Positions 5,479-39,952 of a DNA stretch of 64,000 nucleotides are shown here, piece by piece (within the stretch, counting starts at the first letter, position 1; every line of letters begins with the position of its first letter). Position numbers and translations under genes: made by a program. The notes beneath the pieces were generated by a model. That model did no database searches. It saw only the letters and a program-made list of their open reading frames with translations, and had not been told where the DNA came from. Origin of the DNA: Bacteroidaceae bacterium (GTDB lineage: Bacteria; Bacillota_I; Bacilli_A; RF39; UBA660); the NCBI GenBank assembly GCA_963616135.1, contig CAVEJT010000001.1, forward strand, positions 76,844 through 140,843, written 5' to 3'.

Positions 5479-5931
5479 ATGACTTTAAGGTATGAAGAAT
5501 TAAGATTGGATATGGAAAAGAAGCAAGGAGATATAGCCGAAATTCTATCAGTTAAAAGAAATACTTACTCTAAATGGGAAAACCTTATTAATGATATGCC
5601 GTTAGAAAAATGCAATGAACTTGCTAATTACTATAAGACAACGCTAGATTATGTTTTAGGTCTATCAAATGTAAGAAAATATATAGATACACCGTTGTTG
5701 ATAGATTGGAAACTAGTTTCTGAAAGATTAACCGAATTACGTCATTCTAAGAATTTAACAGAAACGGAATTAAGTAGTAGAATAGGTTTTGCTCAAACAA
5801 CATATTCACATTATGAAATTGGAAAAAGAAGACCTACCACAATGAAATTATTATCAATAGCACAATACTATAATGTTTCTATTGATTATATTGTTGGTAG
5901 AACAAATAAAAAAAGTATAATTATTGAATAA
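5479..5931 (+). CDS. Transcriptional regulator with two tandem XRE-type HTH domains
   Basis: Two HTH_3-like segments (…GDIAEILSVKRNTYSKWEN… and …LTETELSSRIGFAQTTYSHYEIGKRRP…). Confidence 0.7.
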   Translation: MTLRYEELRLDMEKKQGDIAEILSVKRNTYSKWENLINDMPLEKCNELANYYKTTLDYVLGLSNVRKYIDTPLLIDWKLVSERLTELRHSKNLTETELSSRIGFAQTTYSHYEIGKRRPTTMKLLSIAQYYNVSIDYIVGRTNKKSIIIE

Positions 5932-6021: not shown

Positions 6022-6279
6022 TTGAATACGAACCACGTCTGTAAAATATTAGGTGTTAATGTTAAATATTATAGATTTAAACTTGGTTATACTCAAGAAA
6101 AGTTAGCAGAATTATGTGATCTCAGTCCGAGATATATTAGCGATATAGAGAATTTCAAAGGAAATATTCCAATGAACACATTAGAAAATTTGGCTTTTGT
6201 TTTGAAAGTAGAACCATACATATTATTAAAAGAACATAAGCATCGTAGTTTACCAAAAAGAGTTAATATGAAAGATTAA
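6022..6279 (+). CDS. XRE-family HTH transcriptional regulator
   Basis: LGYTQEKLAELCDLSPRYISDIEN HTH_3 motif. Confidence 0.65.
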   Translation: MNTNHVCKILGVNVKYYRFKLGYTQEKLAELCDLSPRYISDIENFKGNIPMNTLENLAFVLKVEPYILLKEHKHRSLPKRVNMKD

Positions 6280-7980: not shown

Positions 7981-8029
7981 ATATATGATTCTTATTTTTT
8001 ATTTGAATTAATTTATAGATTTTTTATAA

Positions 8030-8109: not shown

Positions 8110-10005
8110 ATGATAGACAGCGTAGAAAAAATATGTATCAGAAGGAGGTGTGGTATGAATGAAGCAGAATTAAATCAAAAGTTGGAAACAATTGTTAAAC
8201 TTGCTCAATCAAAAATAATAACTTTTTTAAGTGATTATACAAATGAGAATATAATTAATAAAGTTAAAGAAGTATTTGATAAGAATCCAGTTATTCTAGG
8301 AAATATTGAAAAGAAAGTTAGTGAATTTGGCAAAACTACAACAATAGGTGGGTTAGCATCAGAGTCTGATATAGCAATTTCAAAAGATGATGTGATGAGG
8401 TTTAGTTTAGATGAAGAGTATGAAGTTGATAGAATGTTAGGAACAATAATTCATGAATATGCTCATCAGTTTCGTAAAATGAATTCACAATATGGAAATA
8501 TGTTTGAAGAATCATTTGCAACAATTTTTGCAGAAACATGCGTTAACTATTCTAAAATGAAAAACATTGAAACTCATCCTCAAAGTGAAAGATTTCAAAT
8601 ACAAACTTCTGTTGAATACACAAAGGCAGAATCACAAGTTAGAGGATTGATGTTTGTTTTAAGGGAAAGAAACATGGATATTAACTTAATGTTAGAATAT
8701 ATATTAGGAAATGAGAAATATTTTCAACAAGTATGTTCTCAGGTGTTTGGACAAGGTTTTAACGATTATTACAATGAAGCAATCAATTTGCAAGAAAATA
8801 AACAATATTCAAATAAGTCTGAGAAATTATTAGTTGAATTATTAGCAAATTATATTAAAAACAATGATATAAGTGTTAAAAAATATTATCAAGGTACTCA
8901 ATTAGATGCAACAAATTTGTATTCAACTGGTAGTCCTATTTTTGTTGAAAGTGTAGTCAATGCTGGACAATCTTCTTTAAGACCAGAAGAACAAGATTTA
9001 TTTCGTTATTTTGAATACTCTACAAAAGTAAATAGAGAAGAACAACAATTTGTTGTTGACGAAAAAAGAACGAGAATACAAAATATGATAAGTCAAAAGT
9101 ATGGATTAGTAGGAAAAACTCCAGAACAATTACATGAAACATTAATGGATCTTTGTTCTGATTATATCCAATTTAAAAGTCGCACAGATGATGAAAGAAT
9201 GATTTATTTTGATGAAATAAAGAAAATAATTCCTAATATTGAAGAATTTTCTACAACATTTAAACAGTTGAGAATTTCTGGATTAGATAATAAAATAACA
9301 CAAAACTTAGATTTGAATAACATTAGTTATAGTAGTTTATTTACAGCAATGAACGGTTTAATTCCTAAAAAAGAATCAGAAACAACAAATATTCAACAAA
9401 CGCCAAAACCAGATTTGATATTTTATCATGGAGGTGCTGAACCAACATTTTCGATAGATCAATTAGATGTTTTAAGAAAGTCACAAAAACAACAAACACA
9501 AAGTAATTCTTATGCAGGTTTCTATATGTATTCAGAGCAAGATAGAGATGGAGCATTTAATTATGCAGAACAAGAAAATCGTAGAAAAAATACAACTACT
9601 AAAGGTGTTGTGAAAATAGTATTGGATGGCAATGTTAATACTTATCAAGTTCCACCATTTAGTATAACTAGAATAACACAGGATCAGTTAATTCAATTGC
9701 AGCAACAAGGTTATGATTTAATAGCAGGAAAGATGTTGGGCAAAACAGAATATGTATTACTAAATAAGGGCAAAATTAAAGACATGTCTTTTGAAAGTAT
9801 GGATAAGAGATATATTGATGAAAAAGAAATGACTTCATCAATTAATGATAATAATTCAATATCTAGTTTTAGAGAAGAAAGAGCATCAGAAATGGAACGA
9901 AGGAATCAAATAAGACAGCAACAATTAAGTTATGCTCAAGCAATTAAAATGAATCAAGCAGAATTTGAACAGTATTCTCAAAGTGTAGGAGGATTTAAAA
10001 AGTAA
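8110..10005 (+). CDS. Large HExxH zinc-metallopeptidase-motif protein (likely true start ATG 8155 after AGGAGG)
   Basis: HEYAHQF motif with downstream Glu-containing segment; otherwise unrecognised 600-aa protein. Confidence 0.5.
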   Translation: MIDSVEKICIRRRCGMNEAELNQKLETIVKLAQSKIITFLSDYTNENIINKVKEVFDKNPVILGNIEKKVSEFGKTTTIGGLASESDIAISKDDVMRFSLDEEYEVDRMLGTIIHEYAHQFRKMNSQYGNMFEESFATIFAETCVNYSKMKNIETHPQSERFQIQTSVEYTKAESQVRGLMFVLRERNMDINLMLEYILGNEKYFQQVCSQVFGQGFNDYYNEAINLQENKQYSNKSEKLLVELLANYIKNNDISVKKYYQGTQLDATNLYSTGSPIFVESVVNAGQSSLRPEEQDLFRYFEYSTKVNREEQQFVVDEKRTRIQNMISQKYGLVGKTPEQLHETLMDLCSDYIQFKSRTDDERMIYFDEIKKIIPNIEEFSTTFKQLRISGLDNKITQNLDLNNISYSSLFTAMNGLIPKKESETTNIQQTPKPDLIFYHGGAEPTFSIDQLDVLRKSQKQQTQSNSYAGFYMYSEQDRDGAFNYAEQENRRKNTTTKGVVKIVLDGNVNTYQVPPFSITRITQDQLIQLQQQGYDLIAGKMLGKTEYVLLNKGKIKDMSFESMDKRYIDEKEMTSSINDNNSISSFREERASEMERRNQIRQQQLSYAQAIKMNQAEFEQYSQSVGGFKK

Positions 10006-10350: not shown

Positions 10351-10764
10351 ATGTACAAGATTGGTGATTTTGCGAAAATTGTAGATATTCCTGTAAGAAC
10401 TTTAAGATTCTATGATCAGTATGGAGTTTTGCAACCTTCAGAAATAGACAATTTTACAGGGTATAGATATTATAGTGATGAAAATATAGTGGAATGTGAA
10501 TTAATAAAATTACTTAAATCTTTGGATTTTACTCTTGAAGAAATCATACTTTATAAAAATTCTCTTGATGAAGAAGTTATAAAAAAGAAAAAGAAAGAAA
10601 TAGAGGAGCGAATCTATTTACTTAAATTAAAATACAAACGATTATCAATTCTTGAAGAAGAATTAAAAAACCAAAAAGAGTTTATAAATAAAACAAAAGA
10701 GTCACCTGAGGAAAAGGTGTTAAGGAGGAAATATGAAAAAAGAAATGTTGGAAAAAGTGTATAA
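10351..10764 (+). CDS. MerR-family transcriptional regulator
   Basis: YKIGDFAKIVDIPVRTLRFYDQYGVLQP...GYRYY N-terminal MerR HTH signature, coiled-coil C-terminus. Confidence 0.75.
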   Translation: MYKIGDFAKIVDIPVRTLRFYDQYGVLQPSEIDNFTGYRYYSDENIVECELIKLLKSLDFTLEEIILYKNSLDEEVIKKKKKEIEERIYLLKLKYKRLSILEEELKNQKEFINKTKESPEEKVLRRKYEKRNVGKSV

Positions 10765-12112
10765 TGCACAAAAAAATATAATTGTTTCAGGAGATATGGC
10801 AACAGGAAAAACTACTAGTGTCTTATTCCCATTAATGGATAAAATGATTGAACAACAAGAAAGTCTAATGATATTAGACTCAAAAGAAGAGTATATAAAT
10901 AAATATTATAAGAATTTAAAAGAAAAGAATTACAATATTGTTGTATTAAATTTAAGAGATTTAGATAAAAGTGATGGATGGAATCCAATTCAAATTGCCT
11001 ATGAATTATATAAAGATGGTAATACAGATAAAGCAATGGATTACTTAGATAAAGTAGCAAAAATAATGTTTTATGAAGAATCATCTGTTGATCCATTTTG
11101 GGCATCAGCTGCATCTGATTTCTTTACAGGAGTAGTTTTGGCATTATTTGAAGATGCAGATAAAGATGAAATTAATTTAAATAGTGTTAGTATGATGTTT
11201 GAAGGAGTTAATGAAAAATTCGGTGCAAGTGATTACTTGACAAATTATTTTAAATTAAAAGATCCAAGTTCACAATCTTATGTTTCAGCATCTACAACAG
11301 TTTTAGCCCCAAAAGAAACAAAAGGAAGTATAGTATCAGTTGCTAAACAAAGATTAAGAACCTATGTTTCAAGAGAAAAATTAAGCATATTGATGAATAA
11401 AACAACATTTAACTATAAAGATATAGCAACCAAACCAACTGCAATTTTCTTTATTGCAAAAGATGAGAGTAAATACTTAAATGCTCTAGCAGCTATGTTT
11501 ATAGAACAATTATTTACTGTTTTATTTGATACGTTTGATTTTAAATCTTCTAACAAATTTAATTTTGTTTTAGATAATTTTGATATTATTGAAAAAGTAA
11601 ATGAATTTACTGATATGCTAAGTTCTGGGTTATCAAAAAGAATTAAATTTACTGTTTCAACTCGTTCCTTAGAAGATCTAACTGCTAAATATGGTAATTA
11701 TATTACAAAATTAAGTAATATAATATATGTTGCTTCTGGATTATTAAAAATAAAAATAGATGATAAAGATGAAACGATTGAGAATAAATTTGAAAAAATA
11801 ATAGACGTTTATAATGAAGTTGATTATCCAAAATTAAACCATGTTTCAATAAAAGTTTTCGATTTAAAAAAGTTTGTAAGAGAAGCAAAGAAACAAGATA
11901 TGGAAAATACTTTTAATGAATTGCCACCATTATCAAATCCATTTCCATCAATGTTAAATGAAGGCAATAAGAATATAGATGATTTATTAAAAAAAATAGA
12001 TGATAAAATTGAGGAATTAGATGCTCAAGAAAAAATGTATAATATTGAACAACAAGAAGAAAAGGTCGAGTCTGAAATTGCTAAGTTTAAAATTGATGAT
12101 GAAACTAAATAA
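10733..12112 (+). CDS. Soluble, probably ATPase-degenerate paralog of the VirD4/TraG coupling protein
   Basis: Walker A GDMATGKTT; VVLNLRDLDKSDGWNPI and DPFWASAAS align with VVLNLVDKSKSDHFNPL and DPFWEKAEM of the bona fide T4CP at 37918..39861; DPKGE replaced by DSKEE and Walker B DEW by DNF; no TM segment. Confidence 0.55.
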   Translation: MKKEMLEKVYNAQKNIIVSGDMATGKTTSVLFPLMDKMIEQQESLMILDSKEEYINKYYKNLKEKNYNIVVLNLRDLDKSDGWNPIQIAYELYKDGNTDKAMDYLDKVAKIMFYEESSVDPFWASAASDFFTGVVLALFEDADKDEINLNSVSMMFEGVNEKFGASDYLTNYFKLKDPSSQSYVSASTTVLAPKETKGSIVSVAKQRLRTYVSREKLSILMNKTTFNYKDIATKPTAIFFIAKDESKYLNALAAMFIEQLFTVLFDTFDFKSSNKFNFVLDNFDIIEKVNEFTDMLSSGLSKRIKFTVSTRSLEDLTAKYGNYITKLSNIIYVASGLLKIKIDDKDETIENKFEKIIDVYNEVDYPKLNHVSIKVFDLKKFVREAKKQDMENTFNELPPLSNPFPSMLNEGNKNIDDLLKKIDDKIEELDAQEKMYNIEQQEEKVESEIAKFKIDDETK

Positions 12113-12126
12113 GTAGGTGTGTAATA

Positions 12127-13233
12127 GTGATAGAAGAATATGTAAAAGATATTAAAATAAAAAATTTAGATAAATTGGCAGAATATAGAACTAAGTTATA
12201 TGAAAAGCCAATATTAAAGGACTTATTTTTAGAAGTGACATTAAGATGCAATGCAAGATGTGAACATTGTGGAAGTAGTTGTGGCGACACGATTCAAAAA
12301 GATGAAATAAGTGCCGAAGATTTAAAAAATACTTTGAAAGAAATAGCAGAAAAGTATAATGCTAATGATATATTGTTGAATGTCACAGGAGGAGAACCTT
12401 TAGTAAGAAAAGATTTATTTGATATTATGAAATATGCTTCTTCACTAGGTTTTAGATGGGGCATGACAACAAATGGAATGCTAATTAATGATGAGATAAT
12501 CAATAAAATGATTGAAACTAATATGGAAACTATATCTATTAGTTTAGATGGTTTAAAAGAAACACACGAAAGGTTTAGACGAGTACCAAATAGTTTTGAT
12601 AAAATTATAGAAAATGTAAAAAAACTACAACAAGTACCATCAATAAAAATTGTTCAAATAACAACCGTAGCAAACAAAAAAAATCTGCATGAATTAGAAG
12701 ATGTTTATAATCTTATGAAAGAATTAAATATTATTTCTTGGAGAGTAATAAATGTTGATCCAATAGGTAGAGCCAAAAATAATAAAGAGATTTTATTGGA
12801 TAAAGAAGAATATAAGTATTTATTTAATTTTATCAAAGAAAAACGTGAAGAAAATATAATGAATGTAGAATATGGATGCAGTCACTACTTAGGATTGAAT
12901 TTAGAAAAAGAATTGAGAGATACATACTTTATTTGTACAGCAGGATTATATGTTGCAAGTATTCTAAGCAATGGAGATATATTTATATGTCCTGATGTTG
13001 AAAGAAAAAAAGAATTTATACAAGGAAATATAAAAACGGATAGTTTTGTTGATGTATGGGAAAATAAATTTAAATTATTTAGAACAGAGAATAGAACCAA
13101 ATGCAGTAAATGTGAAAAATGTTCCAATTGGAAATATTGCTTAGGAGATTCATTTCATACGTTTAATTTTGATGAAGGAAGACCTAATTTTTGTATAAAA
13201 GATATTTTTGGAGATGATAACTGTGATTTATAA
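12127..13233 (+). CDS. Radical SAM enzyme with C-terminal SPASM domain (peptide/protein-modifying maturase class)
   Basis: CNARCEHCGSSC (CxxxCxxC) near N-terminus; Cys-rich C-terminus CSKCEKCSNWKYC...FC typical SPASM auxiliary cluster. Confidence 0.8.
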   Translation: MIEEYVKDIKIKNLDKLAEYRTKLYEKPILKDLFLEVTLRCNARCEHCGSSCGDTIQKDEISAEDLKNTLKEIAEKYNANDILLNVTGGEPLVRKDLFDIMKYASSLGFRWGMTTNGMLINDEIINKMIETNMETISISLDGLKETHERFRRVPNSFDKIIENVKKLQQVPSIKIVQITTVANKKNLHELEDVYNLMKELNIISWRVINVDPIGRAKNNKEILLDKEEYKYLFNFIKEKREENIMNVEYGCSHYLGLNLEKELRDTYFICTAGLYVASILSNGDIFICPDVERKKEFIQGNIKTDSFVDVWENKFKLFRTENRTKCSKCEKCSNWKYCLGDSFHTFNFDEGRPNFCIKDIFGDDNCDL

Positions 13234-16114
13234 TAATAAACTAAAAAGAGCTAAACTTGAAAAAATTACGCAGCAATTTATTGATAATATAAATAAATTT
13301 GAAATATTTAAGATACCTGATAAATTATATTTAGACTATTTTGACCAATTAAAAAAATTATTTAATAATTATAAATTTGATGGTGATAATAGATTTTTTA
13401 CTTATGGTAGATTAGATTTTTTAAGAAAAGAGTTAACTGAAAGATTGAATGATCCAAAATTAGAAAAAGAAAGTCCAAATTGGAAAGATAAATGGGATAA
13501 TAGATTAGGTGCTTTTTGGGATTTATATGATTATATTAGAGGCGATAGGCATTTTACTCCAGGCAATATACCAGATGGAATGAATTTTAGAGATAGGCTA
13601 ATTATGAATGACCAATACTATAAAGATGGATATATTTGTAAACAAGAAAAAGATATATTATTAGAAATGATAAATGAAATTGTTCTATTTATAGAATCTA
13701 AACAAAAGAGAAAAAATGAAACTTCTCCTGATTTAAGAAAACTAATTTTCAAAATAGAAGACCATGATTGGGGAATGAAAACAATTTATAGTTGGAACAC
13801 AAAAGTATGGTATATATATGATGATTTATCAGTTGAGTTTAAAATTAGAAATGGAGAAGATAAAGTAAAATCGTATTCTCATAATATAAGTTCATTTGAT
13901 TTGCAACAAATATTTAAAAATATTGAACTTGCAAAATTGAATAATCATGTTGTTGAAGCTTATGATGGTGAGGCATGGGAATTCACACAATACAAAGATA
14001 ATGTCATAGTATGGGAAAGAAAATTAGAATATATATATGGTATAGAACCATTAGAAAATATATGTGATATATTATTTAATTTAGTAAAACAAGATTCTGA
14101 TATATTTACTGATAATGAAATGGAGGAGAATGATATGGGATTATTTAGTAAAAAAGATAAGTATAATGTTGATGTCGAAAAAAATAGACCTCAAATTGTA
14201 TATGGGATACCAGATGCTTTGAGAAAACAATGGGAGGAAGAAGAAAAGAAAAAGAAAAAGGAAGATAATAAGTATAATATAGATCCATCTGATAATGTTC
14301 CCCAAAAGGTTTATGGTGTTCCTAATTATGATTTTTCACAAGATAAAAATGAAAATAAGGAAAAGTATGATATAAATCCAGAAGATAATGTTCCAAGAGA
14401 AGTATATGGTATTCCGTCACCAATACAAAAAGAATTGGATAAAGCAAAAGATAAATATGAAGTTAAGCCAGAGAAAAATAATCCACAAAGAGTATATGGT
14501 GTTATGAATCCAGAAAAATTTGAATTAGATTTGAATAAGAAAAACAAAGAGAGTATAAGCGTTATTATTGATGATTATTGTCTTTCATTGACAAAATGGG
14601 ATAATACTTGTGATTTATTATTTATGAATAAATCTAAAGTATCATTTATAAAAGATTCAATTGTTTCAATATCATTAGAGAAATATGATAAATTTGTTAG
14701 TAAAATTAATGCTATTGTATCTGATTGGGAAAATGAATATATAGGAGAAAAAAACATTAAATGGCAAATTAAATTTAATACAAAAGAATTAAATAAAATA
14801 ATTGTAGGAAATGGTGAATATCCTTTAAATTGGAATAAGTTTATTGAGTTAATTTCTGAATATGAGACATTATTCAAAAAAACAATTATTTATAATAGTA
14901 AAGAGTCAAAACTAAATCTAAATGCCTCTTTTGATGAAATAGTCAAAGAAAAAGTAAATGATCCATTTTGGGAAAAATTAATATCAGACTATTTGAAACA
15001 AGAAATAGATAAGAATGAAACTGTTTTAAAAATAATATTTAAGGATTTATCAAAATATGATGACATATTTAATGAATTTACAAAGTATGTTGTACAAAAA
15101 AACTATGATATACCAAATGCTATAAGCGTTGAAGGATATACTGCCAAAAAGATTGCTGAATTAAATCCTAATTTTAAACCTACTGGAGTATATACATTCT
15201 TAAAATATTTAAGAGAACAACCTGAAGAAGCAAAAAAAACAATAGCAAAAGGATTTCCAAATAAAGATTCGATACAAAATCATGAAAAAAAATTGAAATC
15301 AATATCTGCTATTGAAAAAATCGGAATTCCTACAAAACAATTCGAAAATACAATATTATTTGTGTCAGAAGATGGTTTGATTGCTACTGTTGATAATCAA
15401 AGAGAATCTATAACTAGTGAAAAGTTTGATAAGATTTGTGATGTCGTTTATCAAAGTCAAAGTAAGCTTAGAGAAATAGCAAAACAACAAACACAAGAAT
15501 TTTTGAGTTCACATGTTATGTATGATGATACTGTAAGAAAATTTATAGTTAAATTAGAAGTAGAAGAATTAAATTTGAGTTATCATACTGGTACAGAATC
15601 AGATCAATATATTTTAAATCTAGTAAATGAGATTATAGGAATTATAAAAGATAATTCTAATAATAAAAAAGACATTAATGGAAAAAAATCACAAGAAGTA
15701 GTCACTAGGGAAGATTGGGCAAAGCCAATGCCAGAGCAAAATATTGTGTTTAAAATGGATAGGGTGCTAACTGAAAGTGAAATTGATATATTGAAAAGAG
15801 GTCATAAACCAGAAGTAATGGAAGATAAATGGTATTGGTATGTTGAAAATAATATCTTAAATATTCACCGTAGTTGGACTGGAAACTGTTTATTCAAAGT
15901 AGAATTAAATACTAGTGGTAAGTTAAAAGTAATAGCTAACCGTGATCCAGAACAATATAAAGAAACAAGCGTTGAAAAAGATAAAGAAAATATAAATAGA
16001 TTATTAGATTATTGGACTAAAGAAGATTATGATTATTATGAGCAGTTTATAAGTGAAACTTATAATAATTTGGTTAATAGTGGTTTAATAAAAGATGAAA
16101 ATATTGACAGTTAG
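13208..16114 (+). CDS. Large hypothetical protein (968 aa) with four ~34-aa repeats carrying N-x-P-Q/R-x-VYG-V/I-P
   Basis: Repeats KYNVDVEKNRPQIVYGIP / KYNIDPSDNVPQKVYGVP / KYDINPEDNVPREVYGIP / KYEVKPEKNNPQRVYGVM at nt ~14155..14520; start overlaps rSAM gene. Confidence 0.5.
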   Translation: MEMITVIYNNKLKRAKLEKITQQFIDNINKFEIFKIPDKLYLDYFDQLKKLFNNYKFDGDNRFFTYGRLDFLRKELTERLNDPKLEKESPNWKDKWDNRLGAFWDLYDYIRGDRHFTPGNIPDGMNFRDRLIMNDQYYKDGYICKQEKDILLEMINEIVLFIESKQKRKNETSPDLRKLIFKIEDHDWGMKTIYSWNTKVWYIYDDLSVEFKIRNGEDKVKSYSHNISSFDLQQIFKNIELAKLNNHVVEAYDGEAWEFTQYKDNVIVWERKLEYIYGIEPLENICDILFNLVKQDSDIFTDNEMEENDMGLFSKKDKYNVDVEKNRPQIVYGIPDALRKQWEEEEKKKKKEDNKYNIDPSDNVPQKVYGVPNYDFSQDKNENKEKYDINPEDNVPREVYGIPSPIQKELDKAKDKYEVKPEKNNPQRVYGVMNPEKFELDLNKKNKESISVIIDDYCLSLTKWDNTCDLLFMNKSKVSFIKDSIVSISLEKYDKFVSKINAIVSDWENEYIGEKNIKWQIKFNTKELNKIIVGNGEYPLNWNKFIELISEYETLFKKTIIYNSKESKLNLNASFDEIVKEKVNDPFWEKLISDYLKQEIDKNETVLKIIFKDLSKYDDIFNEFTKYVVQKNYDIPNAISVEGYTAKKIAELNPNFKPTGVYTFLKYLREQPEEAKKTIAKGFPNKDSIQNHEKKLKSISAIEKIGIPTKQFENTILFVSEDGLIATVDNQRESITSEKFDKICDVVYQSQSKLREIAKQQTQEFLSSHVMYDDTVRKFIVKLEVEELNLSYHTGTESDQYILNLVNEIIGIIKDNSNNKKDINGKKSQEVVTREDWAKPMPEQNIVFKMDRVLTESEIDILKRGHKPEVMEDKWYWYVENNILNIHRSWTGNCLFKVELNTSGKLKVIANRDPEQYKETSVEKDKENINRLLDYWTKEDYDYYEQFISETYNNLVNSGLIKDENIDS

Positions 16115-16159
16115 AATAGAAAAACAAAAATGTTTATTTTCTAATTAAGGATAGATGTT

Positions 16160-17083
16160 ATGGATAATAGTATAATAAATATAGGTTTAATAAAAAAAAT
16201 AAATTCTTTCTTAAAAAGAACAAATAGTCTAAAATATTTAGATCCAAACATATTTGAAAATATAGATGAAAGTAAAGAAGTAAATGATATGCCTTTTACT
16301 GATTATTATTTAGAATATATAAATAGTTTGCCAAGATTAGATTTTGAAAATGTAGTTAAAATTTCAAGAGAAGTATATCAATTATATGGAAAAGAAAAAG
16401 ATTTTGATAATATACTAGAAAAATTAGTAAGTAGTTATAGTATAACTGAAGGATCATTAAATAAAGATGATGATAACTGTATAACAAAGGCATCCGAAAG
16501 TAGAGTGTTATTATCTGGAACTTGTTATGATGTGGTGTTGCTATGTCATGAGATAGGACATAAATTAAGATTTGATAATTCTAAAAGCACTTCTGATATA
16601 ATGGATAGTTTTCTCTTTGAAACTCCATCAATTATACTTGAATTGAGTGCAAATGATTATTTGAGAGATAATTATGGCGTTGATATTAAAGCAGATGAAC
16701 TAAGAAAAGCACATATTTTAAGCACTAAAAGAGAAAATGGTGTGGAAAATAATATATTTCAAATTATAATAAGTTTATTAAAAGAAAGAAAATTAAATGC
16801 TATAAACTTATATAAAGAATTTAATAGAGATATGAATATTGTTGAATATCTTAATAAACAAGGTTCTTCTATTGAGGATTGTATTGATGAAGGAATATCT
16901 GCCTACTCATACGATATAGGTTATATACTAGGTACTTATATAAATAATAGTGACAATAGAATAGAATTTTTAAATATGCTATTAAAATATAAGGACAAAG
17001 GAATTAATATGCCGTTCACTATTGAAGAAGGAATTATTAAGACAACATTAGAAAGTCAGAGCATACGAAGCACTAAAAAATAA
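16160..17083 (+). CDS. HExxH metallopeptidase-motif protein (possible ImmA/IrrE-like)
   Basis: VVLLCHEIGHKLRF motif; size and motif compatible with COG2856-like anti-repressor proteases, assignment uncertain. Confidence 0.4.
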   Translation: MDNSIINIGLIKKINSFLKRTNSLKYLDPNIFENIDESKEVNDMPFTDYYLEYINSLPRLDFENVVKISREVYQLYGKEKDFDNILEKLVSSYSITEGSLNKDDDNCITKASESRVLLSGTCYDVVLLCHEIGHKLRFDNSKSTSDIMDSFLFETPSIILELSANDYLRDNYGVDIKADELRKAHILSTKRENGVENNIFQIIISLLKERKLNAINLYKEFNRDMNIVEYLNKQGSSIEDCIDEGISAYSYDIGYILGTYINNSDNRIEFLNMLLKYKDKGINMPFTIEEGIIKTTLESQSIRSTKK

Positions 17084-17104
17084 TACATTTAGTTTTTATC
17101 AAGA

Positions 17105-17130
17105 AACATCTAAAGATTTAGATGTTTTTT
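17105..17130 (+). terminator. Rho-independent terminator (AACATCTA aagatt TAGATGTT + TTTT)
   Basis: 8-bp stem and T-run after stop of 16160..17083. Confidence 0.65.
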
Positions 17131-17168
17131 GTATCTCTTAAACTTGATTAACCAAAAGATATTTTTCA

Positions 17169-25571: not shown

Positions 25572-28500
25572 GTGAAGAAAAAAATTGGTAGGAAGTTAAA
25601 AAAAGTTTTAAATGTAGTAATGGTAGTAGGAATTTTAATTTCTTCATTTCCAATTACACCATTCATTCCTAAAGTAAATGCTTTAGCACGTGTATCTGGA
25701 GATAAGATAATAGAAACAGCTATGTCTTATAGCGACTGGGGATATTTGGAAGTTGGTACATGCACTGGTTTAGTCACTCGTACATTGAATAAACTAGGTA
25801 TTGGTCAATCAATTGTAGGTATCCATCCATACGATATTGATAAACCTCAACCTGAAGGTACTGGAGCAAGATATGCACCTGATAAGATGTATCAAAATGC
25901 TATAAATCATCCAGAAGATGCTGTGCATATTTGGTCTGGTTATGTGAAAGATGTAAAAGCAAATGCTCATTTATTTAAGAATGGGGATTTAGTTATTCAA
26001 AGACCAGAAGATAAAGCAAATTATACAGGCAGTGGACACGTAGGATTAATTCATATATATAATAATACTATTTCAATGTATGGTGCTAATGGAGAAAGAA
26101 ATGGTGTTGGTGATGCCATATTAGCACGTGATATTATGACTAGAGGCACTAGTATTATTATTAACTCTCTTGATTACATTCATGTATTTAGATTAACTAA
26201 AGCAGAACCAGAGTATGCAACTACTACTTCAGAAAAATCAGCACAAGAAGTTGTGGACGTGTCATTTTATAAAACTGATCATGAATCTGGAAAACCATTA
26301 TCAGGAGTAGAAGTAGAGTTTTATAGAGATGATGTTAAATTTGCAACAGGAATAACAGATGAGAATGGATACGCACTATCAACTTCAACAACAACTTATA
26401 CTGCTACTTCATCACCTAAAACTTATGTCACTAATTGGGACTATTTAGGCGAAGAGGAACAAGCAGAAGTTGATAAAAGAGGTGCTTATCATAATCTAGT
26501 AGATGCTCAAGCAGCTGCTGATTCTGAAGCATTAAAAAGTGCAACGGATAAAGCTTCTCAAACTCATAAATATAGTGTAGTTGAAGTAAAAACTAAAACT
26601 AAATATTGGCTAAATCCAGATAATACTACTGATAGCAATTCAGCAACAGGTAGTGGAAGTATTAGTTTATCTTTATCAAATGAAAGGGTAAAAGGAACGG
26701 CTACATTAATTAAAGAAGATGCAGATGTAGGTTATGCACAGAATGAAGCAGAAATTGATGGAGCATTATATGGATTATATGCTAACGAAAATATATTAGA
26801 TCCTGCTGATGGTTCTATAATATATAATAAAGATGATGAAATAACTAGAGTTCGCATAGAAAACGGACAAGTACAAGTAGAAGATTTATATCTAGGTAGC
26901 TACTACTGGCTTGAATTGACTAGTTCAACTGGATATAAATTAAATAAAAACAAAGAAGTTTTTACTTTAAGTTATTCCTCACAAAATGTGAAGATAGTGA
27001 CTTCTAAATCAGTATCAAAAGAAGAAGTAATTACTGGAGATTTTGAAATAGAAAAAATTATAACTTCTGGTGAAGAATCAGAAATAGTGAAAAAAGAAGA
27101 GGGAGCAGAATTTATTGCTGTTGCTAAAAAGTATGTTGATAAATATGGAGATATTGAAACTGCTTGGGAGCATAGAAATGAATTTACTGATAAAGAATAT
27201 GATAAATTAGTGACAAATAAAAATGGTTATGATAAGTCAAAACAATTAGCTTATGGAACTTATGTTGTAAAACAAATAAAAGGACAAATGGATACAGAAT
27301 TAGTAGAAAATACATTTACTTTTACTGTATCAAAGGAAAATCAAGATACAATTAAATATATTGTTAATAATCGTTTATTTACATCTTATGTTAAACTTGT
27401 AAAAGTGGATGCAGAAACAGGAAAATTAATTACAGCATCAAATACATCATTTAAAATCAAAAATGCTGATACTGGAGAATATTTAACACAAAAAGTTGCT
27501 GATACCACTTATGATACTTGGACAACATCAGATAAAGGAATGATACAATTGCCATTAGAAGTTAAAGCAGGGAATTGGATTTTAGAAGAAGTTGTAAGTC
27601 CAGATAACTACTTAATTAATAAAGATGGTGTAAGTTTCAAAGTGACTAATACAAATATTATTGAAACTGATTCTGATGGTGATCCATTATTAACAGTAGT
27701 GATGGAAGATAAAGCAGTAAAAGGTCAAATAAAATTTAAGAAATATGGTGAAGTATTAACTGGTATTGAAAAAGATGATAATGGTAATATCAAATTTGTA
27801 TATGAAGAAAGACCATTAGAAGGAATGGTTGTTTATGTTCAAGCAGATGAAGACATTTTAGATCCAGCAGATAATTCAGTTATTTATAAAAAAGGTGAAT
27901 TAGTTGATGTTATTACAACTTCATCATCAGGTGAAGCATTATCAAAATTATTACCACTAGGAAAGTATGTAGCATTTGAACATCAAAGTCCAAATGGTAT
28001 GTTGATTGATACAACACAATATAAAGTATCATTAGATTTTGCTGACAACGAAACTGAGGTTGTTATGGAAACTATATCTATAACTAATGAACGTCAAAAA
28101 GTAGAAGCTAATTTAACTAAATTAGATTCAGATACTAATACAGCACTAGAAGGTGTTGTTTTTAATTTGACTGCAATTAAAGATATTTACTCTTATGATG
28201 GTAAATTATTGGTAAAAGCAGGTACTTTGATTGAGCAAGGAATAACTGGATCAGATGGTGGTTATATATTTAAAGCAGATTTACCAATTTCTTTAGATGA
28301 TGAAACTTATTTTTCAATTACTGAAGAAAAACAATTAGAAGGATATTATAAAAATGATGATGCTATTTCTGTTGATACTAAATATAAAGGTCAAAATATA
28401 GAAAAAGTTTCTAATAGTCAGACAGTTTATAATAAAATAATTAAAAACTATATTTTAATTAACAAAGTAGATTCTAGTACATTAGAAAATATAGTTAGTA

Positions 28501-28898
28501 AAGACTTTAAATTTAAGGTATGTGCTGATATAGAATGTTCTAAAGTTATAGGAGAATATAGTGCAGATGTAGAAAAAGGAACGGCTTTAATTGATATAAA
28601 ATATGGAACAACTATTTTTATTAAGGAAAGTTCAGCACCTGAGGGATACCTATTAAGTCCAGAAGTTGTAAAAGTAAGTTTAAATAGTGAAGGACTTTTT
28701 GTTAATGATGAAAAGGTAGAAACTGATGAGGATCTAACTTATAGTATTGCTTATCAAAACACATTATTACCAGTTATACAAGAAGGTGTACAAACTGGTT
28801 ATGATAATAATATGCCTATTTATATAATAATAAGTGGAATATCTTTATCTGGTGTAATAGCAATAGCACTTTCATTACGCAAAAAGAAAAGAAAATAA
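25572..28898 (+). CDS. Cell-surface protein: signal peptide, NlpC/P60-family hydrolase domain, multiple Cna-B/prealbumin-like domains, C-terminal sorting-signal-like motif + TM + KKKRK tail
   Basis: TCTGLVTRTL ... GDLVIQ ... GHVGLIHIY (NlpC/P60 Cys/His); repeated ~90-aa beta-sandwich-like units; C-terminus VQTGYDNNMPIYIIISGISLSGVIAIALSLRKKKRK. Confidence 0.65.
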   Translation: MKKKIGRKLKKVLNVVMVVGILISSFPITPFIPKVNALARVSGDKIIETAMSYSDWGYLEVGTCTGLVTRTLNKLGIGQSIVGIHPYDIDKPQPEGTGARYAPDKMYQNAINHPEDAVHIWSGYVKDVKANAHLFKNGDLVIQRPEDKANYTGSGHVGLIHIYNNTISMYGANGERNGVGDAILARDIMTRGTSIIINSLDYIHVFRLTKAEPEYATTTSEKSAQEVVDVSFYKTDHESGKPLSGVEVEFYRDDVKFATGITDENGYALSTSTTTYTATSSPKTYVTNWDYLGEEEQAEVDKRGAYHNLVDAQAAADSEALKSATDKASQTHKYSVVEVKTKTKYWLNPDNTTDSNSATGSGSISLSLSNERVKGTATLIKEDADVGYAQNEAEIDGALYGLYANENILDPADGSIIYNKDDEITRVRIENGQVQVEDLYLGSYYWLELTSSTGYKLNKNKEVFTLSYSSQNVKIVTSKSVSKEEVITGDFEIEKIITSGEESEIVKKEEGAEFIAVAKKYVDKYGDIETAWEHRNEFTDKEYDKLVTNKNGYDKSKQLAYGTYVVKQIKGQMDTELVENTFTFTVSKENQDTIKYIVNNRLFTSYVKLVKVDAETGKLITASNTSFKIKNADTGEYLTQKVADTTYDTWTTSDKGMIQLPLEVKAGNWILEEVVSPDNYLINKDGVSFKVTNTNIIETDSDGDPLLTVVMEDKAVKGQIKFKKYGEVLTGIEKDDNGNIKFVYEERPLEGMVVYVQADEDILDPADNSVIYKKGELVDVITTSSSGEALSKLLPLGKYVAFEHQSPNGMLIDTTQYKVSLDFADNETEVVMETISITNERQKVEANLTKLDSDTNTALEGVVFNLTAIKDIYSYDGKLLVKAGTLIEQGITGSDGGYIFKADLPISLDDETYFSITEEKQLEGYYKNDDAISVDTKYKGQNIEKVSNSQTVYNKIIKNYILINKVDSSTLENIVSKDFKFKVCADIECSKVIGEYSADVEKGTALIDIKYGTTIFIKESSAPEGYLLSPEVVKVSLNSEGLFVNDEKVETDEDLTYSIAYQNTLLPVIQEGVQTGYDNNMPIYIIISGISLSGVIAIALSLRKKKRK

Positions 28899-28923: not shown

Positions 28924-31900
28924 ATGATAAAAAAATATATTGCTATTGAGCATGAAAACTCCAGATATTGTAAAGGTGTTCCTTATATATCAAAAAAAGA
29001 ATTTAAGAAAAATAAAAATAATTTAATTGTTGGAAAGACTAAGTTAAAAAAATATAAATCCAGTTCTGAAAATAAAGATCTGGATTTATTATTATTTAAC
29101 GACAAAGAATTTGAAATAAAAGAAAGATTATTTGGATTTAAAAAAGGATACGTTTTTGTAGGTGATGATAAATATATTGCATTGAAAAGACGTATCCCTT
29201 TTCTTTTTTTACTACTTCTTTTATTAATAGTTTTTATTATGTTTAGATTTTTGATACCTTGTAGTAATCAGGAAGATAAACCTATTGTAGTACCAGTTCA
29301 AAAAGAGGTAATTATTTCTGAAGACAATGAGGATAAAGAAACTATTAAAGAGGAGATTAAGGTTGAAAACCCAAATAAAGTTAAACCATCTTCAAAACAA
29401 GAATTATCAAAAGAATACAAAATTACATTTGATAGTAATGGTGGATATGGTAGCATGGAATCTATTATATGTAAATTAGACAACATTTGTATCTTAAACG
29501 AAAATAAATATACAAAAGAAGGATATAGTTTTCAAGGTTGGTCAACGAAAAATAATGGTGTAGCAGAATTTCAAGATAAAGCAGAATTAAAGAATTTGTC
29601 TTCTAAAAATGGTGATAATATAACTTTATATGCTGTATGGCAAATTAAATTTTATAAAATAACATTTTTGGATTATGATAAATCCATAATTCAACAAGAC
29701 AAGTTAGAATACAATAGTAAAATTATTTTACCTGAAAATCCAATTAGAAAAGGGTACACATTTAAAAATTGGGATAAAGAGTTATCCACAGTAAAAGAAA
29801 ATCTAACTATTAATGCTTTATATGATATTGATAGTTATGATATATCTTATAAATTAAATGGTGGAACGTTAGATGAAGCACCTACTAATTATAATATTGA
29901 AAGTGAAGATATAATAATTCCTTCACCTAAGAAGGTTGGTTATTCATTTATAGGTTGGACAACACCAGATAATAAAGAACCTATAATAGACTATAAAATA
30001 TCAACAGGTTCTGTTGATAATATAGAATTAGAAGCTAATTATGATGCTAATATATATAATTTAATATTCAATTCAAAAGATAATAATGACTCTTTAATAA
30101 AAAGAAAAATTAAATTTGATTCTGAATATGGAATATTACCAGAAGTAGAAAAGGATGGTTATACTTTCAATGGTTGGAAAAATTCGAATGGTGACTTCGT
30201 ATCAAGTGATACATTATATAATGTCCCTGAAGATACTAATTTATATGCTGAATGGAATTTAATAACCTATGATATTAAATATAATCTTAACGGTGGAATG
30301 ATAGATGAAGCACCTACTAACTATAATGTTGAAAGTGAAGATATAATAATCCCTTCACCTAAGAAGGTTGGTTATTCATTCATAGGTTGGACAACACCAG
30401 ATAATAAAGAACCTAAAATAGATTATAAAATATCAACAGGCTCTATTGGTGATAAAGAGTTAACTGCAAATTATGAACCAATAGCTTATTATATTTCTTA
30501 TAATTCATCTGAAGGTCAAGGTGAAATGGAAAAACAAGAATTTGCATATAATCAAACTTCTAAATTAAATAAGAATCAATTTACAAAAGAAGGATATACA
30601 TTTATAGGATGGTCAACATCAATAGATGGAGATGTAATGTTTAATGATGAATCAGAAATATCCAATTTATCATCTAAAGACAAAGATGTGATTACTTTAT
30701 ATGCTAAATGGAAAATTATAAAGTTAAATGTAAAATATTATGATCTGTTTGGAGCATTATTAAAGAGTGAAACAGTTGAATATGGAAATAAATCTGTTGC
30801 ACCTGAAGATATGTTTATTGATGGTTATACTTTTGAGGGTTGGAATCCATCTCTTGGGGTAATAAGAGAGGATACCATATATAAAGCACAATATACCATT
30901 AATGAATATACAATTAAGTATAATTTTAATACTGGTAATAATGATGATGCTCAAGAAATTAAATATAATGTAGAATCTGATATGATTACATTACCAACAC
31001 CTACAAGAACTGGGTACACATTTTTAGGGTGGACTGGAAGCAATGGATTAAAACCTCAATTAGAAGTGATAATTCATAAAGGTTCTATTGGCGATAAAAC
31101 CTATAAAGCAAATTGGGTATCCAATTCATACAAAGTAAGTTTAAATGCAAATGGTGGAGTAGTAAATGAAGATTATATTATGATTTCTTATAATAGTTTA
31201 TATGGAACTATACCGACACCTACAAGAGTTGGTTATACTTTTGAAGGTTGGTATTACAACGACACATTAATAACAGAAGATAGTATACAAGATAAGGAAT
31301 TCGATCACGAATTAGTAGCTAACTGGAAAACTATACAATATGATATAACTTATAATTTGGCTGGTGGGACAGCATCTCCATTACAAACAAGCTACAATAT
31401 TGAAAGTGATTCATTTGTACTTCCAGTACCTACAAGAACAGGATATACGTTTACAGGTTGGACTGGCACCGATTTAAGTTCATTATCTAAAAATGTGACT
31501 ATAAATAAAGGAACAATTGGAAATAGAAGTTATACAGCAAATTGGACTATTAATTATTATACAGTTAATTATTATGTAAATGGTTCTTTATGGGCTACTC
31601 GTTCAGTTGCATATAATACAGCACTTGAAAATTTAGATGCTCAAAGTGCATTAGATATTTATCATAAATTTAATTACTGGGAAGGTTGGGTAGATAAAAT
31701 GCCAACAAATACAGTTAATTTATATGCTAACATTACAGAATCTTATTGTATGCTAATGACTGGACATGGACCTTATAAAAATGCTGAAGGATTGCTAAAT
31801 GTCTTTAAATCAGCAGGTTGGACAGGAAGAATTGAGGAAGCACCATCTGCTCCTGGATTTTACTGGGTAGTCACAGATTACACTTTAACAAGGGCACAAG

Positions 31901-32055
31901 CTGATATTCAGAGAGATTATATAGCAAATCATACTAATTATACCAATTATAATTATCCATACTTATATTGGGTTGCTGTATCATGTACTAATGGTATAGG
32001 AGATACTTGGACTAGAAGTGTAGGAACTAAACAATTTACTAGTCAATATCAGTAA
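28924..32055 (+). CDS. Membrane-anchored surface protein with ~12 Listeria-Bacteroides (Flg_new) repeats
   Basis: Recurrent GY(S/T)F.GW motif every ~70-80 aa; N-terminal TM; two near-identical internal DNA repeats. Confidence 0.7.
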   Translation: MIKKYIAIEHENSRYCKGVPYISKKEFKKNKNNLIVGKTKLKKYKSSSENKDLDLLLFNDKEFEIKERLFGFKKGYVFVGDDKYIALKRRIPFLFLLLLLLIVFIMFRFLIPCSNQEDKPIVVPVQKEVIISEDNEDKETIKEEIKVENPNKVKPSSKQELSKEYKITFDSNGGYGSMESIICKLDNICILNENKYTKEGYSFQGWSTKNNGVAEFQDKAELKNLSSKNGDNITLYAVWQIKFYKITFLDYDKSIIQQDKLEYNSKIILPENPIRKGYTFKNWDKELSTVKENLTINALYDIDSYDISYKLNGGTLDEAPTNYNIESEDIIIPSPKKVGYSFIGWTTPDNKEPIIDYKISTGSVDNIELEANYDANIYNLIFNSKDNNDSLIKRKIKFDSEYGILPEVEKDGYTFNGWKNSNGDFVSSDTLYNVPEDTNLYAEWNLITYDIKYNLNGGMIDEAPTNYNVESEDIIIPSPKKVGYSFIGWTTPDNKEPKIDYKISTGSIGDKELTANYEPIAYYISYNSSEGQGEMEKQEFAYNQTSKLNKNQFTKEGYTFIGWSTSIDGDVMFNDESEISNLSSKDKDVITLYAKWKIIKLNVKYYDLFGALLKSETVEYGNKSVAPEDMFIDGYTFEGWNPSLGVIREDTIYKAQYTINEYTIKYNFNTGNNDDAQEIKYNVESDMITLPTPTRTGYTFLGWTGSNGLKPQLEVIIHKGSIGDKTYKANWVSNSYKVSLNANGGVVNEDYIMISYNSLYGTIPTPTRVGYTFEGWYYNDTLITEDSIQDKEFDHELVANWKTIQYDITYNLAGGTASPLQTSYNIESDSFVLPVPTRTGYTFTGWTGTDLSSLSKNVTINKGTIGNRSYTANWTINYYTVNYYVNGSLWATRSVAYNTALENLDAQSALDIYHKFNYWEGWVDKMPTNTVNLYANITESYCMLMTGHGPYKNAEGLLNVFKSAGWTGRIEEAPSAPGFYWVVTDYTLTRAQADIQRDYIANHTNYTNYNYPYLYWVAVSCTNGIGDTWTRSVGTKQFTSQYQ

Positions 32056-36500: not shown

Positions 36501-36599
36501 ATAATAGATAGTTATAATAAAATGATTAATAATAAAATAATTCAATTTCCTAATTCTAAAGAAGTTGTTTATGACGTACCAGAAAAGGAGGCAGCATAA
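33534..36599 (+). CDS. DNA primase (DnaG-type CHC2 zinc finger + TOPRIM) with long C-terminal extension
   Basis: CPFHNDNNPSLVV...CFACGTGGNAISF zinc-binding motif; LILVEGYMDVV TOPRIM acidic motif. Confidence 0.8.
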   Translation: MTNISLYSEVLKQASIVDVLNYYGLNLNHNKCLCPFHNDNNPSLVVNPKKNIATCFACGTGGNAISFVQKYEKIVNNNDISFNEAITKVVSEICHLNIDVSHLKKNKYNNKYFVSSRRYTEDEQKLLQLNEKLNKLFSYNLSVSKEPKDYLYKRNITDKDMKEVSMGFAPKGQLLKISEKNENYPRPELIELGYLRHNDYGDLYETFSDRIMIPIHDEKGNIVTFCGRTIKDETPKYLHTHETKIFQKKELLYNFSNAKPLAYNNELILVEGYMDVVGAKKIGFENVAALMGTAITPEHIKLIKNNRSSITLALDNDFDKQENIGRAKMLQHIPVLLNEGFKVDVIDFSKIGDYKDFGVLGEKEIPFMEVQKAKTSGFSFLLDYKYFNNLELNVENISLVYKQLKQDKIINNTYDESLFKEYLLNRTEYNKKELDEIIYPKRIEEKESALSKFNSKAMSNFLYSELKLQIDKMDDVVLSSYYLNFKGSVENKLVSIFNKDPELYLDYSTSTLNTKLLLNEFLKDNKEYSDYETLNRFKYNSVFDKTYIKNSKGSAMIKLKDNQKQMVIDQYENSLSDESKLALEEVEELYIINSIDDLDGILNYDNNTLNMIKDNLKNRMFLNKDKMEFFKYGNLFPSINKEFIDDKFKGSTGNFKTILFYNNLDNKLNIDKSNVVSEKELKKTEESKSKEMDKTNESIIKSDYEFSINKMLLVDSKETDTHYFVRIPFTSAKEYFYIPKDECLKSDNGDTIFTKLKYGQSHSIYNVDGEYIGTKSFEELKENWEDKTKKNVRVLDKNEDVQSVPKEEDILYDNSYISKYKEPICKIYHSKIYLETEKGFYIKTEDPNILLFALKKICNWTDNKSYLIIAPRKGIFNSGMSKYRLTGYKKDYEGKLSFSEISKYVKVFTPSNLKNKEILTLEIPKVKCSFKSNFIKVPLVIDNLEGYIEVNLVKSKIDKEKVVLEFLKDEQIGFHNINDEYINHYTSSKIIDSYNKMINNKIIQFPNSKEVVYDVPEKEAA

Positions 36600-39861: not shown

Positions 39862-39909
39862 TTATCTTTTTTATGTTGTTTAAGTTGTTAAATTTTTTTT
39901 ATATTAAGT

Positions 39910-39925
39910 GTTTACTAGTGTAAAC
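39910..39925. promoter_or_regulatory. Operator copy 4 GTTTACTAGTGTAAAC immediately downstream of putative -10 (TTGTTT -35 at 39876, TTATAT/TATATT -10 ~39899)
   Basis: Identical 16-mer plus identical flanks (AAGTG...GA) to copy 1. Confidence 0.55.
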
Positions 39926-39952
39926 GAAAAATTAAAGAAAAGGAGAAAAATT

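Follow-up and report, generated by a model that had tools for sequence, protein, structure and literature searches.

Which molecule does the radical S-adenosylmethionine (rSAM)/SPASM enzyme of this locus act on, and by what reaction? The gene lies in a 64,000-nucleotide stretch of contig CAVEJT010000001.1 (hereafter the window), in which positions 10351–17131 make up one five-gene operon that encodes, in order, a MerR-family regulator, a VirD4-like protein, the rSAM/SPASM enzyme, a large modular protein and an HExxH protein. A preliminary description of the window had proposed that repeated Tyr-Gly motifs of the large protein are modification sites of the co-operonic enzyme. Our analysis supports this proposal: the motif is conserved, and proteins with Y-G motifs neighbour related enzymes across phyla. 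It is highly probable that the enzyme acts on the Y-G motif of the modular protein. The more specific proposal, drawn by analogy with known systems, that the modular protein is the substrate and that the reaction is tyramine splicing at X-Y-G, is about evenly poised. The coordinates of the features are collected in Table 1.

The mechanically called open reading frame (ORF) of the large protein starts with TTG and encodes 968 residues. GTG at position 13223, which lies 9 nt past the Shine-Dalgarno (SD) sequence GGAG at 13210–13213, is the likelier start; it gives 963 residues, as many as in P0001, a homologue with 98% identity. With the GTG start, the large ORF overlaps the rSAM stop codon (13231–13233) by 11 nt; with the TTG start, the overlap is 26 nt. 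The overlap of the two genes was correctly noted in the preliminary description, whereas the 968 residues given there for the large protein are probably too many. The position of the SD and GTG of the large ORF over the rSAM stop codon points to translational coupling, which we count in favour of the pairing of enzyme and substrate.

The large protein contains four copies of an 18-residue motif, KY[NDE][VI]xxxxNxP[QR]xVYG[VI][PM], which are spaced by 37, 31 and 30 residues. Four Tyr-Gly repeats of ~34 residues, each ending with Pro, had been described before; the copy number holds, but the spacing is uneven and the fourth copy ends with Met. From the composition of the protein, 1.6e-5 copies of N.P[QR].VYG per protein are expected by chance. 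TRF found no tandem repeat at the DNA level; the copies are therefore old and maintained by selection on the peptide.

In the AlphaFold2 model of the large protein (predicted local distance difference test score, pLDDT, of 70), folded modules cover residues 9–171, 179–300, 448–565, 575–681, 718–815 and 845–957. They are separated by one low-confidence stretch of ~140 residues, which carries the repeats; this linker is predicted to be disordered and hence would be accessible to the enzyme. The large protein has no match in Pfam, NCBIfam, PADLOC or PDB, and when its two halves and the segment with the repeats were searched separately, NCBIfam gave nothing even at E = 10. With the linker as query, phmmer returned 65 matches from 1.84 billion representative sequences, mostly short fragments, with no informative Pfam domains. 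Neither a signal sequence nor a lipobox is present in the large protein.

The 115 detectable homologues of the large protein are mosaics that differ by gain, loss and exchange of the 9–171 module, the 179–300 module, the repeat zone, the central 448–681 module and the C-terminal modules; some of them bear ADP-ribosylglycohydrolase (P0113 and P0114), DUF6508 or SUKH-5 modules. At least one xYGx[PM] motif is present in 113 of the 115 proteins; it is also located at other module junctions and, in P0100, at the extreme N-terminus. When the instances were chosen by the N-x-P-x-x-x-Y frame, 368 were found in the 115 proteins, 166 of them unique. Among the unique instances, the Tyr is followed by Gly in 94% and preceded by Val in 94%; the residue past Y-G is mostly Val, Ile or Pro, commonly followed by Pro. 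In two alignments, the sole near-invariant block is Y387-P391-N394-P396-V399-Y400-G401(-P403), which is within repeat 3. The most constrained feature of the large-protein family is the linker motif, not any folded domain.

The enzyme had been recognized by a CxxxCxxC motif and a Cys-rich SPASM tail, and both are confirmed. Its cluster motif CNARCEHC (CX3CX2C) occupies residues 41–48 (nt 12247–12270), and the Radical_SAM domain (PF04055) is matched at 1.6e-23. The SPASM domain (PF13186, 9.3e-10) spans residues 270–332; eight Cys are located past residue 250 (270, 288, 326, 329, 332, 338, 356 and 366). The top NCBIfam family is TIGR04133, which is matched over nearly the full length with 321.6 bits and does not reach the cutoff of 425; it is followed by AhbD (160 bits), NirJ2 (143), MftC (137) and WgkB (135). 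The splicease family TIGR04103 scores 108.9 bits (cutoff 725), and DynA scores 92. The identity to TIGR04133 members is 32–35%. Four sampled Firmicute relatives also have TIGR04133 as the best family, with 274–322 bits, under the same cutoff. Judged from these sequences, the clade of the enzyme is a sister of TIGR04133, for which the literature searched contained no published function and no paper naming the family. The homologues of the enzyme are 62–90% identical, a conservation far above that of the partner protein. Some homologues (P0225, P0227 and P0228; 410–441 residues) have a Lys/Thr-rich, low-complexity C-terminal tail of 50–80 residues. Matches to pVip in PADLOC (92–98 bits) reflect generic rSAM similarity, and assignment of the enzyme as a viperin was rejected.

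SPASM similarity of a generic kind might also be expected if the enzyme were an anaerobic sulfatase-maturating enzyme (anSME) or another housekeeping SPASM enzyme, located next to the large gene by chance; one relative, L017, scores 79.6 bits on the anSME family TIGR03942 (cutoff 349). However, TIGR03942 is absent from the best 25 NCBIfam families of the enzyme. In the PDB search, the nearest solved structures are the peptide maturases CteB (1.4e-24), SkfB, SuiB and PqqE, and no anSME is among the matches at E <= 1e-5. No sulfatase was found among the window proteins scanned, and the adjacency of enzyme and partner is conserved, as described below. The chance that such an enzyme stands here by accident is very small. 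Classification by hidden Markov models, which the preliminary description had named as one check, thus gave neither an anSME nor a cofactor enzyme, and the enzyme falls on the peptide-modifying side of the SPASM superfamily.

Conserved co-occurrence of the two genes was the other check named there. Six diverged homologues of the large protein, all retrieved independently, have an rSAM/SPASM gene within 1.3 kb upstream (six of six). The rSAM gene is directly upstream in four contigs; in P0002 and P0034 a small ORF intervenes, and in P0113 the distance is 1.3 kb. Neither check refuted the proposal. In L001 and L002, a conserved small ORF separates the rSAM gene from the large gene; that it is the true substrate was considered and rejected, since its YG is not conserved and the window does not contain it. 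It encodes 71–106 residues (M..K.DI.Y.I.GLG.YEET...) and is located at 9664–9879 in L001 and at 9671–9991 in L002.

For the reverse survey, 41 genome loci were collected by the rSAM alone, with identities of 36–99%; 40 of them were used for the counts of downstream ORFs. The density of YG[VIP] is 6.8 per 1000 residues in the first downstream ORF, compared to 0.61 in 990 background ORFs. Two or more YG[VIP] motifs are present in 19 of the 40 first downstream ORFs, but in only 11 of the 990 background ORFs. In six loci without a downstream YG protein, a YG protein is encoded directly upstream of the rSAM gene.

The YG-bearing neighbours of the rSAM relatives are mutually non-homologous. Besides large modular proteins, they include proteins of ~105 residues with one signal peptide, YG repeats and one C-terminal transmembrane (TM) helix (QTDYGIQTAYGIE; PKYGVFEP), one lipoprotein with YNINVPQTEYGPP and YDPSNDVPQDVYGPP, one Gracilibacteria membrane protein (read with code 25), dockerin-like proteins with VYGPPP, a class judged by eye from GDLN/GDFN repeats, and WXG100-like proteins (TIGR03930, 4e-6) with three to eight QP[KA]YGV repeats and also KYGVVPP. 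Annotated TIGR04133 genes of Parabacteroides, Phocaeicola and Treponema adjoin a 'radical SAM-associated putative lipoprotein' of 130–281 residues; the mature N-terminus of these lipoproteins is CEYGSP, CEYGTP or CYGMP, right after the lipobox. The sole element common to the partners in Firmicutes, Bacteroidota, Spirochaetota and Gracilibacteria is x-Y-G-x-(P). The Y-G pair is invariant across the partner families, whereas the position before the Tyr can hold V, K, A, D, L, M, E, T, F or C.

Two of these partner types deserve a separate description. The WXG100/ESAT-6-like partners (L017, L018, L024, L041 and L043) carry 3–8 QP[KA]YGV or VVYGPP repeats in the N-terminal part; they are located at ~9100–9970 where the rSAM gene starts at 8001, and at 5992–6474 in L041. 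Secretion by a type VII system is possible for them, and they would be modified in the same way. The dockerin-like secreted proteins with VYGPP belong to metagenome-assembled genomes (MAGs) of Ruminococcus and are encoded just upstream of an rSAM relative (L035, 7290–7970; L037, 1737–2270); a cellulosome-type protein may therefore be a substrate.

The YG repeats could instead be passive or docking linkers, recognized for example by the HExxH or the VirD4-like protein, or polyprotein cleavage sites, and the rSAM would have a different target, such as a cofactor, a small molecule or some other protein. The motifs are located exactly between folded modules, as polyprotein junctions would be, and the island contains zincin-like genes (16160–17083 and 8110–10005); metallopeptidase cutting has been proposed for polyvalent proteins of conjugative elements (PMC5512222). 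The runner-up families of the enzyme, AhbD and NirJ2, are tetrapyrrole enzymes. However, no tetrapyrrole or cofactor genes are nearby, and the YG neighbour is kept in four phyla, even at loci without a VirD4-like or HExxH gene. Only four (L001, L004, L005 and L007) of the ~17 related loci examined have the HExxH gene after the large gene. We hold this explanation to be distinctly improbable, and modification of the motif by the rSAM is preferred.

The HEIGH motif of the last operon gene is present as described before, but the release of a modified segment, which had been suggested for this protein, is unsupported, given its occurrence in so few loci and its scores. The protein passes no peptidase family threshold (Peptidase_M10, 19.8 bits, under the gathering score of 24) and has no PDB match. 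Only the bare HExxH is present; HEIGHKLRFDN is without the Gly or the third His of the extended HExxHxxGxxH. We regard the protein as accessory and find no support for the proposed processing role. Another zincin motif, HEYAH, is found in one 631-residue protein encoded at 8110–10005, which matches no family. It is kept in related islands (69% in L001, 63% in L002 and 51% in L009) and shows weak similarity to the HEIGH protein around the HExxH (BLASTP, 0.007).

Modules of the large protein are not confined to it. In P0132 and its relatives (514 residues; BLASTP, 3e-9), the rSAM bears a homologue of the N-terminal module (N-module) as an N-terminal fusion, and P0100, the partner in P0132-type loci, is without the N-module. 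At least four different substrate modules are fused to the C-terminus of VirD4-like homologues. P0058 carries residues 11–302 of the large protein, N-module included; P0327 carries the N-module (3.5e-31) and one 'FEGGY' module; P0282 carries residues 574–689, the helical half of the central module (4e-43); P0244 and P0248 carry residues 827–939 (3e-25 and 8e-47, respectively). Because modules of the large protein are fused to both the rSAM and the VirD4-like protein, a Rosetta-stone pattern, these fusions argue for the VirD4-like protein, the rSAM and the modular protein working as a three-protein complex.

The VirD4-like protein scores 161 bits on NF045973 and does not reach the cutoff of 250. 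Its Walker A motif, GDMATGKT (nt 10790–10813), is intact; its Walker B motif is FVLDNF (nt 11564–11581), in which the catalytic Glu is replaced by Asn. Among 120 homologues, the Walker B motif has D-N in 107, D-G in nine and D-S in one, with three unmatched; Glu is present in none. No 19-residue hydrophobic window of the VirD4-like protein reaches 1.6, whereas the element's own type IV coupling protein (T4CP) has one at residues 8–32. These features point to a protein that binds nucleotide and hydrolyses it poorly or not at all. The preliminary description of a soluble, Walker-B-degenerate VirD4 paralog is upheld in these respects; the term orphan is not, since the protein is a conserved part of a cassette and its homologues occur fused to modules of the large protein.

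This cassette, composed of the MerR, VirD4-like, rSAM and modular proteins, is present in L001, L002/3, L005, L006, L009, L046, L055, L056 and the P0115 contig, and without the MerR in L057. The flanks of the cassette loci differ, and several of them adjoin serS, including L003 and L055. The upstream MerR regulator, whose earlier assignment is confirmed by Pfam, precedes the VirD4-like gene in L001, L002/3, L005, L006, L009, L046, L053–L056 and the P0115 contig; in the window, the 3' end of its gene shares 32 nt with the start of the VirD4-like gene. In L053/L054 (6622–8692), only the MerR and one VirD4-like fusion of 563 residues are present, which shows that these two do not require the rSAM. 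No rSAM or YG protein is beside them, and they are found on at least 24 contigs; they lie between serS and housekeeping genes (DacA-like, RluB, RlmN and PP2C/PASTA kinase).

As for the reaction, backbone splicing to a ketoamide is most likely when the locus is compared to known systems, and we favour it over a Tyr crosslink, the main rival. Reportedly, 27 splicease systems have been validated and 939 predicted (Scott, Chem, 2022). Splicing is the best-supported chemistry because the Y-G pair is invariant with a free residue before it, the sites resemble known splice tags, and the helical module is mobile; the splicease assignment is made from the substrate motif, not from the phylogeny of the enzyme. 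The splicease site is X-Y-G (PMC11414181, PMC10849128). Like the tyramine spliceases (PlpX/PlpY/PlpA, PcpX and RhaX/RhaA; Morinaka, Science, 2018; PMC11414181, PMC10533398, PMC11626197), the enzyme here is an rSAM/SPASM protein encoded beside its putative substrate. In those systems X is variable and the site may be repeated; four VYG are present here. The validated PlpA splice tags, PIRP[L/G]YGLPI and AVAAGYGVVFP (PMC10533398), resemble P[QR]xVYG[VI]P of the large protein and KYGVVPP of the WXG100-like partners, the likeness being in the flanks YG[LVI]P and YGVV..P. Spliceases are activated by a leader or by the helix of the Y-protein, which is still functional when fused to the enzyme (PMC11414181); the N-module, which moves between substrate and enzyme, is a candidate for such an element. 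A separate recognition element (RRE) is missing from most splicease systems, which are binary, and whole proteins are among the known targets of spliceases.

The differences from the spliceases are also clear. The enzyme is outside the PlpX family (TIGR04103/IPR026482). The substrate would be an intracellular multi-domain protein of ~965 residues with sites in the inter-domain linker, not a leader-core peptide, and the candidate recognition element is a module of ~165 residues. The system here belongs to a conjugative element, where a MerR regulator and a VirD4-like protein are coupled to it, and its product is predicted from sequence.

The same enzyme-substrate pair could use a different chemistry, namely one Tyr-centred crosslink, which would turn the linkers into rigid knots and not into ketoamides. 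It may be a triceptide-type cyclophane that spans the three residues Y-G-[V/I/P], or a C-C or C-O link from the Tyr to an upstream residue; another single-site change at Tyr-Gly, such as epimerisation or beta-hydroxylation, is grouped with it. Many Tyr or aromatic crosslinks are made by SPASM maturases (PqqE, MftC, triceptide enzymes and RrrB), and MftC, WgkB and DynA are about as near to the enzyme as the splicease family TIGR04103 is. The Val, Ile or Pro after Y-G, commonly with Pro next, would fit an aromatic-x-x cyclophane register, and the second conserved Tyr (K-Y-D/N), located 13 residues upstream, could be the crosslink partner. However, the upstream KY is missing from the small membrane, WXG100-like and Bacteroidota partners, and is therefore no universal partner. 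Triceptide motifs vary at the middle residue and have the bond on the third, whereas an invariant Y-G with a free preceding residue across partner families is the signature of an X-Y-G splice site. We consider the crosslink rather unlikely. For each site, a mass change of -135 Da, as expected from tyramine excision (loss of C8H9NO) at X-Y-G, is more likely than the -2 Da of a crosslink.

Several observations weigh against splicing of the Y-G motif by this enzyme. The enzyme is not a member of the PlpX family, and its TIGR04103 score is below those of AhbD, NirJ2 and MftC. The AlphaFold2 prediction of one single chain (residues 1–440 of the substrate and the rSAM, with a thin substrate alignment) gave no confident docking of any YG motif, with pLDDT of 30–58, and speaks neither for nor against splicing. 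The partners in L023 and L028 have MYAVDP where the homologues have xYG, and no obvious YG neighbour is present in ~8 of the 40 rSAM loci. The MYAVDPGP partners are small signal-peptide/TM proteins (L023, 9043–9363; L028, 9082–9390), in which either Ala is tolerated after the Tyr or the site is decayed.

From the gene order, the conserved motif, its co-occurrence with the enzyme across phyla and the domain fusions, we infer the following course for tyramine splicing. The rSAM would target the Tyr-Gly core of the 18-residue motif, present four times in the disordered inter-domain linker of its co-translated partner; the N-terminal helical module of the substrate is the probable recognition or activator element. 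The enzyme would then excise the tyramine part of the Tyr at X-Y-G and rejoin the backbone. The spliced linker would be protease-resistant and electrophilic, and able to trap proteases. The VirD4-like protein, nucleotide-binding but without the catalytic Glu, probably complexes the modular protein via the same modules, and possibly hands it to the type IV secretion system (T4SS) of the element, as has been proposed for polyvalent proteins (PMC5512222).

One much broader reading, which we consider improbable, holds that the TIGR04133-like rSAMs are cross-phylum editors of protein, not peptide, backbones, recruited on conjugative elements into a new delivery cassette. Tyr-Gly would be converted into ketoamide beta-residues in lipoproteins, membrane-anchored surface proteins, WXG100-type secretion substrates and dockerin proteins. 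The TM-less, hydrolysis-dead VirD4 paralog would bind the polyvalent protein, whose inter-domain linkers would be protease-proof or protease-trapping, and transfer of this protein by the T4SS into recipients would blunt protease-based or other host defences.

Overall, the system is best described by analogy as an rSAM/SPASM maturase with a repeated-motif substrate, and among known systems it is most like a spliceotide system. It is set apart by the large modular substrate with linker sites and by the location of the cassette on conjugative islands of gut Firmicutes; the migration of one putative recognition module among the substrate, the enzyme and the degenerate coupling-protein paralog sets it apart as well. 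TIGR04133, an NCBIfam hypothetical equivalog of Bacteroidota and Treponema, shares with the enzyme the adjacent partner with x-Y-G-x-P, in addition to being its best-scoring family. Different from the large protein with four sites, however, canonical TIGR04133 partners are small lipoproteins that have only one site, right after the lipobox Cys.

Like the polyvalent proteins (PMC5512222), the large protein has shuffled modules, and its gene belongs to the accessory part of a conjugative element; ADP-ribosylglycohydrolase, SUKH-5 and DUF6508 modules occur among its homologues, and zincin-like genes are associated. In contrast, no signature polyvalent domains were detected in the protein of the window, and the conserved linker motif is no described feature of polyvalent proteins; the survey of Iyer et al. 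2017 mentions neither radical SAM nor VirD4 partners (PMC5512222). The VirD4-like protein shares the P-loop T4CP fold and the intact Walker A with the type IV coupling proteins (VirD4/TraG/TrwB; CD1115-family, NF045973), and its gene is likewise on a conjugative element with its own T4SS. Different from them, it has no N-terminal TM anchor, its Walker B Glu is replaced, its score is below the NF045973 cutoff, and it is encoded with the rSAM cassette, not with transfer genes, and is sometimes fused to substrate modules.

The window has a GC content of 25%, and its genes are nearly all on the + strand. Its genes include those that make up an integrative conjugative element from a low-GC Firmicute (Table 1), and the rSAM operon sits in the accessory part of this element. 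A 99%-identical locus, L005, was found by genome scan in 'Clostridia bacterium HGM13690', one human-gut MAG. Megablast of the region against plasmids and phages gave no match. A phage system was considered and rejected, as tblastn of the rSAM against phages and one IMG/VR scan gave no real relative.

Near the left end of the window, one PemK/MazF-type toxin gene is located at 957–1307 (5e-21), followed by HTH_3 genes at 5479–5931 and 6022–6279. The region 3' of the operon (17249–25340) encodes one TPR/DUF4272 protein of 1138 residues, one calcineurin-like phosphoesterase, which matches the candidate system PDC-S10 of PADLOC (1.6e-9), and two tandem ADP-ribosylglycohydrolases, and it also contains two unknown genes (21346–22296 and 22286–23077). 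These genes recur beside the cassette at other loci in shuffled order, which suggests a larger conserved island.

Table 1. Features of the operon, of the large modular protein and of the surrounding element (window positions)
Feature	Position (nt)	Residues	Strand	Remarks
MerR-family regulator	10351..10764		+	operon gene 1; Pfam MerR_1 1.2e-16
Soluble VirD4/T4CP-like P-loop protein	10733..12112		+	T4SS-DNA_transf PF02534 1.2e-19
rSAM/SPASM maturase (predicted)	12127..13233	368 aa	+	Pfam Radical_SAM + SPASM
Modular substrate candidate (mechanical ORF)	13208..16114	963–968 aa	+	115 homologues with shuffled modules
N-terminal helical module	13232..13720	aa 9–171	+	candidate recognition/activator element
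Disordered linker with all four repeats (predicted)	14108..14539	aa 301–444	+	pLDDT <50 at 301–336 and 362–444
Repeat 1, KYNVDVEKNRPQIVYGIP	14159..14212	aa 318–335	+	putative site V331-Y332-G333
Repeat 2, KYNIDPSDNVPQKVYGVP	14270..14323	aa 355–372	+	putative site V368-Y369-G370
Repeat 3, KYDINPEDNVPREVYGIP	14363..14416	aa 386–403	+	putative site V399-Y400-G401; best-conserved copy in two alignments
Repeat 4, KYEVKPEKNNPQRVYGVM	14453..14506	aa 416–433	+	putative site V429-Y430-G431; ends M, not P
Conserved central module	14549..15250	aa 448–681	+	in nearly all homologues
Variable C-terminal modules	15359..16078	aa 718–957	+	swapped among homologues
Zincin-like HExxH protein	16160..17083	307 aa	+	accessory last operon gene; HEIGH aa 130–134, nt 16547–16561
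Terminator-like hairpin	17100..17131		+	14-bp stem then T run; after HExxH gene, closes operon
SpaA-repeat adhesin	25572–28898			surface protein
Flg_new-repeat surface protein	28924–32055			
DnaG-type primase fusion	33534–36599			
Element's own coupling protein (T4CP)	37918–39861	647 aa		full-length, TM anchor
TrbC/VirB2-like pilin	39908–40279			
VirB4-like ATPase	41685–44099			
CHAP hydrolase	44102–45919			
MobA/VirD2 relaxase	56761–58446			
Tyrosine integrase	62689–63963			

TIGR04133 is a widespread 'hypothetical equivalog', and the x-Y-G-x-P shared by all partner types gives it a concrete prediction that is testable by mass spectrometry. If tyramine splicing is true, natural backbone ketoamides would extend from small peptides that are made on ribosomes and modified after translation (RiPPs) to large proteins, intracellular as well as secreted, of gut bacteria, and the natural multi-site splice tags, together with the enzyme-activator fusion, would be useful in protein engineering. 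The close tie to the degenerate coupling-protein paralog is a hint that conjugative elements may prepare their accessory proteins, and perhaps export them, by a route not described so far.

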